Made by a program: the position numbers and the translations under genes
Virus record (IMG/VR): IMGVR_UViG_3300008952_002488
Span: 96,001-160,000 of that record
Length of the DNA stretch: 64,000 nt
Reading direction: 5' to 3' (one strand)
Origin: a virus
In this document: one piece after another, positions 4,096 through 22,423 of the stretch
Position numbering within the stretch: the stretch's first letter is position 1
Layout of the letters: the number at the start of each line of letters is the position of its first letter
The notes under the pieces: model-generated
What the model was told of the DNA's origin: nothing
Database searches by the model: none
The model's input: only the letters and a program-made list of their open reading frames with translations

Positions 4096-4124
4096 TTGAC
4101 AGACCCCTAATCCATGATACTATA
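4096..4124 (+). promoter_or_regulatory. sigma70-type (early) promoter with extended -10
   Basis: TTGACA 4096-4101, 16-nt spacer, TGA-TACTAT 4115-4123; followed by AAGGGAGAG SD and ATG 4145. Confidence 0.75.
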
Positions 4125-4144: not shown

Positions 4145-5053
4145 ATGGGTCGTACCAACCAATGTCAGGCTTGTGGGGATTGGGGTCACAATCGCCGTGG
4201 CTGCCCAGCAATCAAAGCAGCCCACGCCAGAGTTGAGAGCCTTGGGGAGAAGTACGGCATCGTGCTTTCGGAAGATGAGCGTGCTTACGCTTCCACTTCT
4301 TGGATCACCAAGATCAACGAGGCAGCCAGTGCTGCCGGCAACGCCGAGGACGAAGTTAACTACCGTGAGCGGTGGTATTGGGAAGAGCTTGAAGTGCGCA
4401 AGATTGCCCAGGCTCGCAAGAACAAGCGTGGCCGCACCTGCGGCTTCTGCGGCGAGGGCGGACATAACGCTCGTACCTGCGAACACAAGAAGCAGCACCG
4501 CAAGGACTGCAATGCCATGCAAAGTCTGGCTCACCGAGTTGTCGCTGCCTGCCTGAGCAAAGCAGGTCTCGTTCCCGGCGCTCTGATGCGGCTTCGGGAT
4601 TGGAGCATGGACAAGGATGATTACGAACAAAAGATGTGCATGGTTATGGGCATCAACTGGGAGCGGGTTGCCGACCCTGGTTATGACCACGACCATGGTT
4701 CGCCTCGCCGCTTAGACAGTTGGTTCAAAGGTCCAATCATCAAGGTTCGTAAGCCTGACGGTCAAGAGGGTTACCTTCGGATTCCTCAAAACATCAAGCA
4801 GCAAAGCCACTACAACTACTTTGAGAAGGAACCGGCTCAGTTCGGTTTGGTGAGCGGTGTGGTCGGTGGTCCTGTCAACAAGGACAGCGGCTGGAAGGGT
4901 GACAACGTGACCCTACTCAGCCCCGCTGCCCACGGGGTTTACCACTGGGGTGTCAACAAAGACGACGGCTCGGGCGAGCGAATTGTTGATGCTGACCTTG
5001 AGCCAGAAATCAACAACCTCATCAACCAAGTTTCAAACTGGTCAGAACATTAG
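4145..5053 (+). CDS. Protein with two CCHC zinc knuckles (probable nucleic-acid-binding early protein)
   Basis: CQACGDWGHNRRGC and CGFCGEGGHNARTC both fit C-X2-C-X4-H-X4-C; has its own promoter and SD; visibly GC-richer than its flanks. Confidence 0.8.
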   Translation: MGRTNQCQACGDWGHNRRGCPAIKAAHARVESLGEKYGIVLSEDERAYASTSWITKINEAASAAGNAEDEVNYRERWYWEELEVRKIAQARKNKRGRTCGFCGEGGHNARTCEHKKQHRKDCNAMQSLAHRVVAACLSKAGLVPGALMRLRDWSMDKDDYEQKMCMVMGINWERVADPGYDHDHGSPRRLDSWFKGPIIKVRKPDGQEGYLRIPQNIKQQSHYNYFEKEPAQFGLVSGVVGGPVNKDSGWKGDNVTLLSPAAHGVYHWGVNKDDGSGERIVDADLEPEINNLINQVSNWSEH

Positions 5054-6443: not shown

Positions 6444-6623
6444 ATGAACTGCTTTCAACTCGAAGTCCGTGGCGTAACCTTTACCATTTGGGCTCCTACC
6501 CTGCGTGAAGCAGTGGAGACCTTTATGATTGATATGGACTTTTTTGAGGTCCCCAAGGAGTTGGTTGCTTGCGAACCAATTGCTACTTTTCCTATGCCTG
6601 AAAGTTGCCCAGGTGGCTTTTGA
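6444..6623 (+). CDS. hypothetical 59-aa protein (below the ORF-track cutoff)
   Basis: ATG 6444 immediately follows TAA; AAGGA upstream; MNCFQLEVRGVTFTIWAPTLREAVE...GGF; fills the gap exactly up to the next ATG. Confidence 0.6.
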   Translation: MNCFQLEVRGVTFTIWAPTLREAVETFMIDMDFFEVPKELVACEPIATFPMPESCPGGF

Positions 6624-7106
6624 ATGCCTTGGTTATTAATAGCTTTATTGGTTGGTTATGGCTATCCGTCTTACTTTAAAGAGGATCAGCGAGCAAACGC
6701 CGCTATTATAATAGACCAAGTAAACAAACTAGATTTAGACCCTCATTATTTTATTGCGATTGCTTGGGTTGAGTCACGAGTAAAAGCTAACAGAGTTTCA
6801 CACACGGGTGATTACGGAATATTTCAGATTAATTATAATTTTTGGGGTAAGAGGTGGGGATATACTTCAAAGAAAAAATTCTTGGTTGATATGTCAAGCC
6901 CTGGTCATGGTGTTGTCGCTGCTGCTGTAGTGTTAAAGGAAATGAAAAAATACAAAGCCTGTAAAGGGTTAAACTTGGCTGCCTGCTATAATGGCGGACC
7001 AGGCTGGCAGAAATCTAAAAATATAAAAAAGATTTTAGAATACGCAGAGAGGGTAAATTGTATTGCTCGTGCGTATAGAAAAAAATTCCCTAACTGGAAG
7101 CAATAA
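6624..7106 (+). CDS. Lytic transglycosylase (SLT domain) with N-terminal signal/anchor
   Basis: Catalytic AIAWVES, GIFQIN and AACYNGGPG motifs. Confidence 0.85.
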   Translation: MPWLLIALLVGYGYPSYFKEDQRANAAIIIDQVNKLDLDPHYFIAIAWVESRVKANRVSHTGDYGIFQINYNFWGKRWGYTSKKKFLVDMSSPGHGVVAAAVVLKEMKKYKACKGLNLAACYNGGPGWQKSKNIKKILEYAERVNCIARAYRKKFPNWKQ

Positions 7107-7111
7107 AAAAC

Positions 7112-7140
7112 TTGACCATCCCCTAATCCGTGCTATTATA
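7112..7140 (+). promoter_or_regulatory. sigma70-type early promoter upstream of a non-coding region
   Basis: TTGACC 7112-7117, 16-nt spacer, TGC-TATTAT; shares CCCCTAATCC with the 4096 promoter. Confidence 0.7.
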
Positions 7141-7141
7141 C

Positions 7142-7281
7142 TGTTGGAGGGAGAGACAGTCATAAACTCAGTGCCGAGCCACGACATTCGCCCTAGGGAT
7201 CTGTAGCGGCGGCACTGACAGATGGAGACGGTTATCATGCTCTCCCTCGGCTCTGAGTTTATGACTGTTTCCTTCTCAACA
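7142..7281 (+). ncRNA. Unknown structured RNA A: long terminal helix closing a multibranch domain
   Basis: 7156-7171 pairs perfectly with 7253-7268 (16 bp); GCCGAG/CTCGGC adds 6 bp; TGTTG/CAACA closes the ends; inner helices ATCTGT/ACAGAT and GGAGA/TCTCC; no + strand ORF in the track. Confidence 0.65.
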
Positions 7282-7294
7282 AGGGAAAGAAATC

Positions 7295-7392
7295 TGAACT
7301 GATCATTTGGATAAGACTTCCCTGACCTGTCTCATCAGCGGGTAAATAAAAGACATAAGATGATGGATTGATTATCCTGATTCGGTTCACCA
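7295..7392 (+). ncRNA. Unknown structured RNA B: bulged long hairpin ending in ACCA
   Basis: TGAACTGATCA/TGATTCGGTTCA and GGATAA/TTATCC helices; inner TGTCT/AGACA with possible CATC/GATG pseudoknot. Confidence 0.45.
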
Positions 7393-7447
7393 CCGGAGCC
7401 TAATTGGAAGGTTGAAAATGGCGGTTCGATTCCGTCCTCCGGTTTCA
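7392..7447 (+). ncRNA. tRNA-like mini-RNA lacking an anticodon arm
   Basis: Acceptor ACCGGAG/CTCCGGT, D-like hairpin CCT-AATTGGA-AGG, T-arm GGCGG-TTCGATT-CCGTC, 3' T-TCA; followed by a T7 run. Confidence 0.6.
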
Positions 7448-7455
7448 TTTTTTTC

Positions 7456-7484
7456 TTGACTTCCTTTGTTTCCATGATAATATA
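7456..7484 (+). promoter_or_regulatory. sigma70-type early promoter
   Basis: TTGACT, 16-nt spacer, TGA-TAATAT; leader TAAGGGGGAGAGATATG is nearly identical to that of the 4145 gene. Confidence 0.75.
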
Positions 7485-7504
7485 CTAATGTAAGGGGGAG
7501 AGAT

Positions 7505-7978
7505 ATGAAGTTAGAAAACGCTCTCAAGAAAGTTCGCAATCGTGCTAAAATTGTAGACCGTGAGGTTTTCATTGAGCAGAATGACTATCACAACAATGGT
7601 CAGGTCAAAGTCTACATTCAGTTTGAAGGCTCCAACCAGCTTCTGTCATTTTGGACCAACAGGGACGGCAGCATTAGTGCTCCCCATGTGAAGCGTGCTG
7701 GTGAAGAGTCAGACCCTCACACGGACTACTTTCCAGGCTGCTTTTATGACAACATTACGCAAGCACTCAACACGCTCGCTCCGCTGCCGCCCAAATACTC
7801 GGTCGGTTCGCTAGTGCGCTTCAAAGATAACAAGCGCAACAATCGTTGGAAGTTGGCAGGCAAGGTTGCCTTGGTGATCCAAGCCGAAGCCGGCGGGAAC
7901 TACAAGGTTCAGTACGATGGTAGCGAAGACCGCTACAACCCCTTCTACTCCCAGCGTGACCTTGAGTTAGTTTCATAA
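7505..7978 (+). CDS. hypothetical early protein with C-terminal SH3/KOW-like segment
   Basis: Strong SD and own promoter; KYSVGSLVRF...GKVALV...YKVQY...DLELV pattern. Confidence 0.7.
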   Translation: MKLENALKKVRNRAKIVDREVFIEQNDYHNNGQVKVYIQFEGSNQLLSFWTNRDGSISAPHVKRAGEESDPHTDYFPGCFYDNITQALNTLAPLPPKYSVGSLVRFKDNKRNNRWKLAGKVALVIQAEAGGNYKVQYDGSEDRYNPFYSQRDLELVS

Positions 7979-7983
7979 AAAAC

Positions 7984-8012
7984 TTGACACCTGCCAAGGT
8001 CGTGATAATATA
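7984..8012 (+). promoter_or_regulatory. sigma70-type early promoter
   Basis: TTGACA, 16-nt spacer, TGA-TAATAT; AGGAGG SD before ATG 8030. Confidence 0.75.
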
Positions 8013-8029
8013 AGATACAAGGAGGAAAC

Positions 8030-8224
8030 ATGGCAAACTCTCTTAAAAAGTTCCGTGTTAAGTTCATGAAGGGGCATCTCGTTAACGGTTGTCTCCGGGT
8101 TGACCAGCAGGACCAAACAGTCCACAAGCGCACTGTTCATGCCCGCAACGACCTCGAAGCTATGCGCCAGGTTCGGAGTCAAGTTCCAGCTACTCACTCG
8201 ATGTGGGCACAGGAGGTTAGATAA
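8030..8224 (+). CDS. hypothetical small early protein
   Basis: AGGAGG SD, directly under the promoter. Confidence 0.7.
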   Translation: MANSLKKFRVKFMKGHLVNGCLRVDQQDQTVHKRTVHARNDLEAMRQVRSQVPATHSMWAQEVR

Positions 8225-8225
8225 G

Positions 8226-8540
8226 ATGGCTATTGCAAATCCCGAAGTTGAGTTTCACCTTCAAGACTTTGTTGGCGAGTGTGCAGAAATGCTCAACGAG
8301 CACTATAAAGTGAGACTTCCCAATTTGAGTGCTCCCGAGGTCAAAGTGTCCGAGGGCGGCAAGTTTTACAAGGTCTATAAAGATGAAGGTGAATACCACA
8401 AGAGTGTTTGGTTCTTCGTCAGTAAAGAGGACGGCTTGATTTGGAAGGCTGCCTCTTGGAAGGCTCCTGCTCGGAACTTCCCTCGTGGAAATATCCTTGA
8501 AGACAAAGCCAAAGACGTGATTGGGATCTACGGACTGTGA
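8226..8540 (+). CDS. conserved phage hypothetical protein (KAASWKAPA motif)
   Basis: Start re-called to ATG 8226; motif SVWFFVSKEDGLIWKAASWKAPARNFPRGNI resembles small proteins of aquatic phages. Confidence 0.7.
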   Translation: MAIANPEVEFHLQDFVGECAEMLNEHYKVRLPNLSAPEVKVSEGGKFYKVYKDEGEYHKSVWFFVSKEDGLIWKAASWKAPARNFPRGNILEDKAKDVIGIYGL

Positions 8541-8668
8541 GTTCGTTACTGCATACTCTTTTTGGGCTTTCCTTTGTTGGCGGGTCTATGTATTTGCTTT
8601 ATACAGCAATTCTAAGAGAAAGAGAAAGGCAGATGAATATGAAAAAGAAGAATACCCGGCGAAGATAA
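8537..8668 (+). CDS. small 43-aa membrane protein
   Basis: GTGA overlap with the previous stop; MSSLLHTLFGLSFVGGSMYLLYTAILRERERQMNMKKKNTRRR (TM helix plus basic tail). Confidence 0.55.
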   Translation: MSSLLHTLFGLSFVGGSMYLLYTAILRERERQMNMKKKNTRRR

Positions 8669-8832
8669 GCGTTACGGGTAAACCGGAGCCGATCTGGCAG
8701 GCAGCTAGAAAACGCCAGCGTCCCTACCTCCAGTAACCACATACCTTGGAAGAGTTGCGTGTGGAAAACGGTTTGTAGGGTTAGATACAAAACTAACAGG
8801 AATCCCGTAATCGTTCGGGTGAAAACTCTTCA
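8669..8832 (+). ncRNA. Unknown multibranch RNA with two predicted pseudoknots, directly upstream of tRNA-Gly
   Basis: TTACGGG/CCCGTAA, TAAACCG/CGGTTTG, CTGGC/GCCAG, CCACAT/GTGTGG and GTTAG/CTAAC helices; crossing pairs CCCTAC/GTAGGG and GAAGAGTT/AACTCTTC. Confidence 0.55.
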
Positions 8833-8838
8833 AAACTT

Positions 8839-8914
8839 GCGGATGTAACTCAGATGGTAGAGTGTTTGGTTGCCAATCAAAATGTCGTGGGTTCGAATCC
8901 CATCATCCGCTCCA
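8839..8914 (+). tRNA. tRNA-Gly(GCC)
   Basis: Full cloverleaf, GCGGATG/CATCCGC acceptor, loop TT-GCC-AA, U73, encoded CCA. Confidence 0.95.
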
Positions 8915-8917
8915 AAT

Positions 8918-8994
<77 letters not shown>

Positions 8995-9004
8995 AGGGGT
9001 TAAG

Positions 9005-9643
9005 ATGTTACGAGTCTTAGGAAAATTACCGAGAGAATTAGGAGTCGCTGTCAGCGGCGGACCAGACTCCATGGCAATTCTAGACTTTCTCAGCAACAAC
9101 CATGAGGTAACCGCAGTCTATTTTGACCACGGCACAGACTTCGGACGAAAATGTAAAAGATTTGTAAAGAACTTTTGCGATAATAGAGATATTCCTCTTG
9201 TTGTAGGTATTAATTATAATGGGTGTCCTCCGAAAAAATCGCTTGAAGAGCATTGGCGTGATGAACGCTATAAGTTCTTTCACAGTTTCGACATGGCTAT
9301 TGTTTCGGGTCACAACTTAGACGATGTGATTGAGTGGTTTTTATTCTCTTCTTTGCACGGACAGGGTAAACTTATGCCCTACAAGAATCAAAACGTTTAT
9401 AGACCGTTTATCTCCACCTCTAAACGCTCGCTAGAAGATTGGTGCGAACGTAAGGATGTGCCGTTTATGATTGACCCAGGGAATACCGATAGAAAGTTTA
9501 TGAGAAGCATTATCAGAAACGATATTATGCCTCATGCTCGCAAGGTAAATAAAGGGCTCGAAAAAACATTTAAAAAACTTGTAGAAAAGGAATATAATAA
9601 CTGTGGGGGATTAGCTCAATTGGTCAGAGCACTCGACTCATAA
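9005..9643 (+). CDS. tilS: tRNA(Ile)-lysidine synthetase TilS, catalytic domain only
   Basis: PP-loop VAVSGGPDS, EEHWRDERY, GHNLDDVIE, RPF, DPGN...RSIIR; start re-called to ATG 9005 after tRNA-Arg; 3' end overlaps tRNA(CAT). Confidence 0.9.
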   Translation: MLRVLGKLPRELGVAVSGGPDSMAILDFLSNNHEVTAVYFDHGTDFGRKCKRFVKNFCDNRDIPLVVGINYNGCPPKKSLEEHWRDERYKFFHSFDMAIVSGHNLDDVIEWFLFSSLHGQGKLMPYKNQNVYRPFISTSKRSLEDWCERKDVPFMIDPGNTDRKFMRSIIRNDIMPHARKVNKGLEKTFKKLVEKEYNNCGGLAQLVRALDS

Positions 9644-9681
9644 TCGATAGGTTCTGGGTTCAAGTCCCAGGTCCCCTACCA
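9605..9681 (+). tRNA. tRNA(CAT), most likely tRNA-Ile2 (lysidine)
   Basis: Cloverleaf; anticodon arm TCGA-CT-CAT-AA-TCGA resembles Ile2; lacks the fMet GGG/CCC anticodon stem; adjacent to tilS. Confidence 0.85.
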
Positions 9682-9682
9682 T

Positions 9683-9758
9683 GCCCGAATAGCTCAGATG
9701 GGAGAGCAGTTGATTTGTAATCATCAGGTCGTAGGTTCGAATCCTACTTTGGGCACCA
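9683..9758 (+). tRNA. tRNA-Thr(TGT)
   Basis: Cloverleaf, loop TT-TGT-AA, encoded CCA. Confidence 0.93.
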
Positions 9759-9761
9759 TAA

Positions 9762-9836
9762 GCGGCTATCGTATAATGGTTATTACCTCAGCCTTCCAAG
9801 CTGATGATCTCGGTTCGATCCCGAGTAGCCGCTCCA
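9762..9836 (+). tRNA. tRNA-Gly(TCC)
   Basis: Cloverleaf, TCAGC-CT-TCC-AA-GCTGA, U73, encoded CCA. Confidence 0.95.
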
Positions 9837-9860
9837 CACTATTTTATAAAGGAGAGAAAA

Positions 9861-9989
9861 ATGCCTAATCCAATCGCTTACACTAAAGAAATGCAGGAGG
9901 CTATGATCTCTACCTTGGAGGCTTTTGCAGTCAAGGTAAAAGAAATGGAAAAAAGAATAAAAGCCTTGGAGGAAAAAAAAGATGAATAA
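9861..9989 (+). CDS. small coiled-coil protein
   Basis: AAGGAG SD; start re-called to ATG 9861 because the track start lies inside the tRNA. Confidence 0.55.
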   Translation: MPNPIAYTKEMQEAMISTLEAFAVKVKEMEKRIKALEEKKDE

Positions 9990-10179
9990 ATTACTTAAAG
10001 CAGCGTTGAGTCATTACGAAGCCCAACGTGATGAGGCTTTGGCGGTTCTAGAAGTTTACTTAAATAATTCTGTCGGAATTGGTGAACATTCAGGATTAAT
10101 CGATGAAATCAAAAACTGGACAGAAAAGTTAACTGAGGCAGAGGAAAATATGGCGACAATTAAGCGTCACTTTCCATAG
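9982..10179 (+). CDS. conserved small phage protein (VGIGEH motif)
   Basis: GGAGG SD; helical hairpin with NSVGIGEHSGLIDEI. Confidence 0.65.
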   Translation: MNKLLKAALSHYEAQRDEALAVLEVYLNNSVGIGEHSGLIDEIKNWTEKLTEAEENMATIKRHFP

Positions 10180-10279
10180 CCCAACACTATTTAATACAGT
10201 TACCTCTCCTAATTGGTTTTGTACTTTGCAAGTTACAAATTGTTGTAATTAAGGACCAAGTTTATAGGAGGAAATATTT

Positions 10280-22097: not shown

Positions 22098-22423
22098 GGG
22101 GGTAACCGGTATCGATTGATGGGAAAATAGAAAAGGTGCAAGGGTGAGGGAAGCGTGGCTCACTAAAAACGCTTAAAACTTTAATCGCCAATGACGATTT
22201 CGAAATGGAGATGGCAGCTTAAAAACCTGACCTCCCATGAGGCGACGGCAGCCAATAAACAGAAAGCCGTATTTGGGTGTCCTAAGTGCTTTTGATTGTT
22301 TTAGCCGCAATAAAACGATCTAGTCAAGCGGGCTGTCTGACGAAAAAAACAGACCCAACCTTGTGAATGACCCCTTCTATAGAACTAGGCAAGACGGGAG
22401 TTCGATTCTCCCTACCTCCACCA
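22098..22423 (+). ncRNA. ssrA: tmRNA; tag reading frame 22187-22222 encodes ANDDFEMEMAA
   Basis: GGGGGTA/TACCTCC acceptor with G3-U, T-arm GGGAG-TTCGATT-CTCCC, ACCA end, pk1-like region, resume codon GCC. Confidence 0.95.

Follow-up and report, generated by a model that had tools for sequence, protein, structure and literature searches.

T4-type myoviruses count among the ocean's most abundant viruses, and the hyperplastic regions of their genomes are thought to hold genes for host adaptation. To our knowledge, only protein ORFans have been described so far as the cassette cargo of these regions. In T4-type phages, such ORFans are flanked by PeSL (promoter-early stem-loop) units, each made up of an AT-rich stretch, a strong early promoter, a Shine-Dalgarno sequence (SD), and a stem-loop, which mediate shuffling (Arbiol et al. 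2010, PMC2839356; Comeau et al. 2014, PMC4122927). T4 also produces RNAC and RNAD, small stable RNAs from its tRNA region whose biological roles are still unknown (PMC3014915, PMC9697503). We present here RNA A, a stalk with a multibranched core, ~135 to 140 nt long, on the plus strand at positions 7142 to 7281 of a 64-kb stretch of viral DNA (the window, to which positions refer). It is supported by the z-score of its fold, 11 homologues that fold alike, and a covariance model. We consider it very probable that RNA A is a real structured RNA of the plus strand, with a conserved structure, modular mobility, no coding function, and a place outside the catalogued RNA families. Comparison of genomic contexts indicates that uncultured marine T4-type myoviruses carry it in a hyperplastic region as cargo of a PeSL-like early-promoter cassette, which they gain, lose, and shuffle.

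The window comes from an IMG/VR virus record of 171,926 bases, about 60% complete, that encodes a T4-type Gp23 capsid protein, a baseplate wedge protein, PhoH, five tRNAs, and a tmRNA. Judged by its Gp23 gene, the source is a marine T4-type myovirus. The neighbors of RNA A are the lytic transglycosylase gene SLT (6624 to 7106) and a 157-aa gene (7505 to 7978). A mini-tRNA at 7392 to 7447 lies ~110 nt downstream of RNA A, outside its stem, and the five-tRNA cluster lies 1.6 kb downstream. The tmRNA gene (22098 to 22423; tag ANDDFEMEMAA; 79.5 bits) is of the one-piece type. The GTG listed as the start of the PhoH-like open reading frame (22363) lies within the 3′ end of this gene, and the frame therefore probably starts further downstream. 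Related marine T4-type phages such as Melnitz have tmRNA genes of the two-piece type (PMC9004378).

A sigma-70-type promoter with an extended −10 element (TTGACC, 16 nt, TG-n-TATTAT) was found on the plus strand at 7112 to 7139, with a scan score of 10/12 and the TG before the −10 hexamer. The promoters at 4096, 7112, 7456, and 7984 have a common design, TTGAC-N-TG-n-TAnnAT followed by the leader GTAAGGGAGAGAGATATG, and those at 4096, 7456, and 7984 precede genes at 4145, 7505, and 8030, respectively. The first ~17 nt of RNA A (5′ leader segment, 7142 to 7158) are the phage's standard mRNA leader (GTTGGAGGGAGAGACAG) with its Shine-Dalgarno sequence, as aligned with the other leader units; no start codon follows, and in the predicted fold the segment is paired into the outer stalk. 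The transcript thus opens as the phage's other early mRNAs do and continues as a hairpin. In all contexts, each RNA A homologue is preceded by a conserved −10 region. The first-pass annotation had placed the start of RNA A at the predicted transcription start site. The element does have its own promoter, at 7112 to 7139, but since the −10 hexamer ends at 7139, the start is probably near 7145 to 7147 and not at 7142, so that the outermost 3 to 5 pairs (7142 to 7146 with 7277 to 7281) may be outside the RNA. Nothing but an A-run and the SLT stop codon precedes the −35 element at 7112, and no terminator-like site was reported just upstream of the promoter. A minus-strand promoter-like match at 7135 to 7163 (ATGACT, 17 nt, TATAAT) overlaps the −10 element of RNA A and would read antisense into SLT; the near-palindromic TATTATA probably gives rise to it.

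RNA A had been judged too long and branched for a terminator, and this holds: the element is branched and 140 nt long, and the window continues with CAACAAGGG, which has no U-run. The T-run of a next promoter abuts RNA A only in contigs L173 and L175. No convincing terminator follows RNA A in the window, and transcription should therefore continue into the adjoining RNA B and the mini-tRNA. Because the linker after RNA A, AAGGGAAAGA, finds its pairing partner CTTTCCCT within RNA B, the latter probably begins near 7283.

The predicted minimum free energy of the plus strand of RNA A is −66.3 kcal/mol, compared with −41.5 ± 4.1 kcal/mol for 200 dinucleotide shuffles, none of which folded as well; the comparison with shuffled sequence that had been suggested as a check thus returned z = −6.0. 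The minus strand of 7142 to 7281 folds similarly (−65.8 kcal/mol, z = −7.3), and the strand therefore needed other evidence. The arms of RNA A are the strongest inverted repeat of the 64-kb window among those spanning up to 250 nt (26 nt, 92% complementary).

The fold has a stalk of two helices. The inner helix, P1, joins 7155 to 7178 with 7246 to 7269 in both the fold and the alignment and consists of 17 bp, a U·U mismatch at 7172/7252, and 6 bp. Within it is the helix described in the first-pass annotation, ACAGTCATAAACTCAG-T-GCCGAG (7156 to 7178) with CTCGGC-T-CTGAGTTTATGACTGT (7246 to 7268), which on recounting has 22 pairs and one T·T mismatch. A 2-nt bulge (7153 to 7154) separates P1 from the outer helix, or stalk extension, in which 7142 to 7152 pair with 7270 to 7281 through 11 pairs, some of them G-U, as in the G-U-bearing extension to both ends that had been described. 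The 3′ strand of this outer helix is a CU-rich tail (7270 to 7281), the partner of the purine-rich leader, whose sequence varies by genomic context and is pyrimidine-rich throughout. The outer stalk may be fortuitous, since a purine-rich leader pairs with any pyrimidine run; in L173, the leader is predicted to pair with the T-run of the next promoter.

The interior begins with a 20-nt junction strand, CCACGACATTCGCCCTAGGG (7179 to 7198), which is invariant in all variants except L166 and may form two tiny hairpins (CGA/TCG and CC/GG). It includes CCCTAGGG at 7191 to 7198. The P3 hairpin (7199 to 7223) follows, with ATCTGT pairing with ACAGAT, a CGG/CYG extension, and an apical loop, and then the P4 hairpin (7224 to 7245), with an invariant GGAGA/TCTCC stem and a loop region with an SD-like GGAG and an ATG at 7237. 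These interior parts, too, agree with the earlier description. The accompanying suggestion that the self-complementary octamer allows dimerization fares less well. In L166, the most divergent variant, CCCTAGGG becomes the non-palindromic CCCCCCAGGGG and the 4-bp local hairpin is strengthened; the palindrome is not kept, and dimerization through it is not supported.

Eleven distinct homologues of RNA A, about 87 to 96% identical, were obtained from ocean metagenomes, and all fold individually to the same architecture. ENA contigs L145 and L166 to L171 were found through the neighboring SLT protein cluster, and 13 JGI metagenome contigs (L173 to L185) were found with a gapped pattern derived from the invariant core. 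The 11 distinct variants were aligned (alignment A1; mean column identity, 90%; consensus structure, 47 pairs). Standard pairs occupy 98.8% of the 504 pair cells of A1, compared with 38 to 50% when the partners are slid by 1 to 3 columns. Both sides have changed at two pairs, 22-122 in P1 and 63-81 in P3 (the latter in L166), each from U-A to C-G, and ~10 pairs alternate G-C or A-U with G-U, including 60-84, 69-77, and 70-76 in P3. The P1 mismatch column varies freely and is a U-A pair in L166. Column shuffles reached the observed covariation or pairing in 12 to 15 of 500 trials and the number of double-change pairs in 56 of 500. The covariation is thus supportive, not conclusive, and only modestly above that of the shuffles, as expected from the small divergence among the homologues. 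Contig L178 (1 to 120) ends in RNA A and has upstream of it an apparent reverse complement of RNA A's own 3′ arm; this fold-back is probably an assembly artifact caused by the long hairpin, and the two odd mismatches of L178 were given no weight.

The assignment to the plus strand is clearer than the covariation. Pairing is found in 98.8% of the A1 cells on the plus strand and 88.3% on the minus strand, with 57 G-U cells versus 4 A-C cells, and covariance model R1 scores 166 bits on the plus strand and 57 bits on the minus strand. The G-U pairs fit the plus strand only, and the conserved promoter agrees. The first-pass annotation had named homologues without the pairing, or a DNA-level inverted-repeat scar, as the findings that would speak against an RNA; instead, the pairing is kept, two pairs are compensatory, and the G-U changes fit the plus strand. 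The non-palindromic interior (junction strand, P3, and P4) is conserved as well as the arms. At the nucleotide level, RNA A is 87 to 96% identical between contigs whose flanking protein genes are 70 to 90% identical. Such high identity suggests that the module is under purifying selection, has spread recently, or both, and could partly reflect recent horizontal spread and not selection alone.

RNA A is found in varied company. Contigs L159 to L164 have an SLT gene identical to that of the window and an identical cassette, and L145, whose SLT is 88% identical, has the whole cassette at 94% identity. L166 to L171 have RNA A alone (85%), directly before the SD and ATG of a 51-aa gene. In L146 to L148, a short substitute replaces RNA A, and the mini-tRNA is accompanied by the 3′ part of RNA B. 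L150 and L153 to L158, with SLT about 91% identical or more, have no cassette and a single promoter-leader unit between SLT and the 157-aa gene p7505. The promoter with RNA A occupies at least three gene slots (after p6228, after p6444, and after SLT), and some of the JGI contigs have it in front of other genes. What lies downstream is, depending on context, RNA B with the mini-tRNA, the next promoter, or the SD and ATG of the 51-aa gene. The mini-tRNA is present without RNA A in L146 to L148 and absent beside RNA A in L166 and L173 to L176. From these varied combinations, RNA A is a self-contained module, independent of RNA B, the mini-tRNA, and the 51-aa gene. Each genome has one copy. Where it is present in one genome and absent from another, the indel boundaries lie at repeated promoter-leader units and outside the inverted repeat.

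The downstream gene led to 15 IMG/VR relatives. Their p6444-p7505 slot is either empty or filled by various small genes, and SLT and RNA A are missing from it in every case; SLT sits elsewhere in them, with genes after it. RNA A was not found in these 15 relatives or in 4 found through SLT, nor by sequence search in ten whole IMG/VR relative records, nor by the covariance model in four of those ten, including a complete 190-kb genome. The slot from 6444 to 7505 (59-aa gene to 157-aa gene) is itself a hot spot. Each cargo in L005 to L014 has its own promoter-leader unit, and the cargo in relatives may be nothing, a NifU-like small protein (GGGCQGCGAS motif; L006 and L007), small membrane proteins (L010 and L013), or others.

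RNA B and the mini-tRNA (7283 to 7447) form their own module: in L146 (2219 to 2380), L147, and L148, the mini-tRNA and two-thirds of RNA B, on its 3′ side, are 96% identical and have the same promoter, while ~45 nt of other sequence takes the place of RNA A together with the 5′ portion of RNA B. The 51-aa gene encodes an acidic protein (start MPVQEHIENILGAV) and often stands just after RNA A or the RNA cassette (L145:4008-4163, L166:2165-2320, L174, L177, L182, L184, and L185), with 97 to 99% nucleotide identity and 98 to 100% protein identity between phages whose neighboring genes differ by 20 to 45%. An obligate linkage of this gene to RNA A was considered and rejected, as the gene is absent from the window's genome and present (78 to 82% identity) at other sites in two relatives without RNA A.

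Database searches placed RNA A outside known families. The Rfam 15 collection (4227 models, including phi29-type pRNA, 6S RNA, ribozymes, and riboswitches) gave no match over 7142 to 7281 at the gathering score or at E ≤ 10; the cmscan search at E ≤ 10 covered 6900 to 10200 of the window. A sequence search of the INPHARED phage collection with 6600 to 8100 gave no match, and no cultured relative was found through a protein of the region. The exact helix 15-mer occurs in 115 IMG/VR stretches by chance only, with no further similarity, and three more specific patterns and a mini-tRNA pattern had no matches in IMG/VR. One match in a GTDB scan, in an Acidimicrobiales MAG, falls in a G+C-rich coding region and is rejected by the covariance model, and we regard it as a chance match.

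Searches for partners of RNA A in the phage record were likewise negative. The core has no complementarity of at least 11 nt to the phage genome (9 ten-mers, with 19 expected), and its complementarity to the phage tRNAs and tmRNA is at the chance level. The start of the junction strand, CCACGACATT (7179 to 7188), is complementary over 10 nt to 8881 to 8890, in the variable loop and T-stem of tRNA-Gly(GCC), but the energy of −17.3 kcal/mol is within the null (1% tail, −21 kcal/mol), and this candidate was set aside. No gene for RNase III or a double-stranded RNA-binding domain protein was found in the phage record. A switch in which the CU-rich tail acts as an anti-SD for the downstream SD was also considered; freeing the tail shifts the predicted accessibility from 0.49 to 0.27 in L166 and leaves the others unchanged.

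The reading that we favor combines a mobile structured RNA with processing by RNase III and action in trans, and we put this statement as a whole at roughly 45%. Transcription would start ~7 nt past the extended −10 element with an ordinary phage mRNA leader, and a 22-bp near-perfect helix would follow where a start codon would otherwise stand. With the purine-rich leader paired to the CU-rich tail, both ends of the ~135-nt RNA would be clamped in a ~33-bp stalk, closing a compact junction formed by the 20-nt invariant strand and two conserved hairpins. Host RNase III would cut the stalk, as it does rRNA-flanking stalks and T7 early-mRNA sites, and free a stable ~100-nt core from the downstream RNA (here RNA B and the mini-tRNA and elsewhere the 51-aa gene or the next cassette). 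The core could then act in trans through the invariant junction strand and the loops, binding a host or phage factor. RNase III requires roughly two helical turns (at least 20 to 22 bp) of near-continuous double-stranded RNA, and RNA A has 22 bp with one mismatch plus ~11 outer pairs, kept in 11 of 11 variants. An RNase III substrate is therefore plausible, and the predicted helix length fits. The pairing of host RNase III processing with action in trans, taken on its own, is offered tentatively.

The main rival, on balance doubtful, is that RNA A is a cis-acting 5′ leader, with a 5′-terminal helix that protects against 5′-end-dependent decay, a put-like antitermination element, or the operator of a regulatory protein. 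Whatever the context, RNA A comes first in the transcript from its promoter; in L166 and L181 the 51-aa gene, with its SD and ATG, follows RNA A directly and without an intervening promoter, so that in L166 RNA A is a plain 5′ untranslated region; and with no convincing terminator after it in the window, read-on into RNA B and the mini-tRNA is expected. The put RNAs of HK022 consist of two hairpins, to which P3 and P4, adjacent and without a linker, can be likened. The downstream sequence, however, differs by context (RNA B, another promoter, or three different genes), which leaves no constant regulated target; a mere stabilizer would need neither an invariant 20-nt junction strand nor conserved loops; and freeing the CU-rich tail alters SD accessibility only slightly, in L166, and not in the others. 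A riboswitch or other ligand-sensing leader is a far less credible form of leader. The multihelix junction with invariant joining strands immediately follows a promoter and in L166 is itself followed at once by a gene, but RNA A matches no riboswitch family, no expression platform is common to the contexts, and a closing stalk of ~33 bp at −66 kcal/mol cannot plausibly switch. An effect at the DNA level (an inverted-repeat scar, a recombination hot spot, or a cruciform or single-stranded DNA hairpin of cassette shuffling) is very unlikely. The element sits in a hyperplastic region of recombining cassettes, PeSL stem-loops are crossover sites (PMC2839356), and the minus strand folds almost equally well (−65.8 kcal/mol). 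Against this, the indel edges lie in promoter-leader repeats outside the inverted repeat, the interior is conserved as much as the arms, G-U pairs are preserved on the plus strand only (57 G-U versus 4 A-C cells; 98.8% versus 88.3%), and the single copy per genome shows that RNA A is not a repeated recombination motif.

Two further readings concern what the transcript would encode or bind, and we give each of them almost no weight. One is a micropeptide gene or type I toxin-like mRNA, in which a GGAG-N9-ATG in P4 opens a frame of 19 to 22 codons with its ribosome site locked in the fold. The SD-like GGAGA does stand 9 nt before the ATG at 7237 and is paired with the codons just after that ATG, and the long-range 5′-3′ pairing resembles that of hok-type mRNAs. 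L145, L177, and L180, however, differ from the window by a 1-nt indel in the tail that gives different C-terminal halves (…SFSTRERNLN and …SLQQGKEI), in other contexts the frame leads into unrelated sequence, the peptide itself is not hydrophobic, and the promoter scan found no antisense RNA promoter in a fitting position. With its P4 ATG frame broken by the indel, RNA A is not coding. The other, the Y-RNA-like scaffold of the first-pass annotation, would be a YrlA-type RNA whose terminal stem binds an Ro/Rsr protein and tethers an exonuclease. What suggests such a scaffold is a structured module closed by a long stem of paired ends, together with a tRNA-like element 110 nt downstream; the searches lend it no support: neither RF00019 nor RF02553 matched RNA A at E ≤ 10, with weak YrlA matches only on true tRNA genes, and TROVE (PF05731), the Ro domain, had no match in the 171,926-base, about 60% complete record, with positive controls. 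The interior of RNA A consists of P3, P4, and the junction strand, with no T-loop or tRNA-like module; the tRNA-like element is separate and independently mobile. A dsRNA decoy, the third role offered in the first-pass annotation, has evidence neither in its favor nor against it. Rather unlikely, though ahead of these, is an RNA-only accessory gene that serves as a decoy or sponge, with the junction strand and loops capturing a host factor such as an RNA-targeting defense nuclease or an RNA-binding regulator. If it were so, RNA A, the CCA-ended RNA B, and the anticodon-less mini-tRNA would be a mobile RNA decoy toolkit, exchanged by marine T4-type phages through promoter-cassette recombination as other phages swap anti-defense protein genes.

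RNA A is a clean case of a conserved, branched RNA as cassette cargo, more conserved than the neighboring protein genes. Its presence is polymorphic among near-identical phages, and it is freely combinable with two other RNA modules. Phage accessory RNAs thereby become a testable class, and an alignment and a covariance model now exist for RNA A, a family missing from Rfam.

Among described systems, Y RNA and YrlA resemble RNA A in having paired ends, a long terminal stem around structured RNA, and a transcript that also includes a tRNA-like element; unlike in those RNAs, the tRNA-like element here is outside the stem and independently mobile, and neither an Rfam match nor an Ro gene was found. 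The T7/T3 early-mRNA sites (R1.1) and the 16S and 23S rRNA stems share with RNA A a quasi-continuous helix of at least two turns that flanks a functional RNA, between units of a polycistronic early transcript, whereas the T7 sites are simple 50- to 60-nt hairpins with an internal loop and no conserved branched core.

RNAC and RNAD of T4 (species 1 and 2) are, like RNA A, 120 to 140 nt long and located near tRNA genes in a T4-type phage, and RNA A is predicted to be cotranscribed with a tRNA-like element; the kinship is in kind only. Model R1 at E ≤ 1 found no match in the T4 tRNA region (X03016; L186). Species 1 RNA is a tRNA-like four-way junction with a GGTTCGAATCC T-arm, a motif that RNA A does not have, and RNA A, unlike RNAC and RNAD, has its own promoter and is accessory and mobile. 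In species 1 RNA (L186:139-275, corresponding to X03016 4741 to 4877), the ends are paired, one arm is long and bulged, and a second hairpin and a T-arm with GGGTTCGAATCCCGG complete the fold; as a tRNA-like RNA with an oversized arm, species 1 RNA is closer to the idea of the window's mini-tRNA than to RNA A. It was reportedly cut by RNase III in vitro. For RNAC and RNAD, a 50-year-old puzzle, RNA A provides a comparative partner among small stable RNAs near phage tRNA genes.

The PeSL units offer the closest parallel to the genomic setting. As with PeSLs, a repeated unit of AT-rich sequence, a strong sigma-70-like promoter, and an SD leader stands before each small gene of the hyperplastic region, and the insertions, deletions, and relocations of cargo in this T4-type virus are bounded by these promoter-leader units. 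PeSL cargo is a protein-coding ORFan, whereas the cargo here is a structured RNA of 135 to 140 nt with a conserved interior, and the short G/C-tract terminator that lies upstream in PeSLs contrasts with a large hairpin that lies downstream of the promoter, in the transcript.
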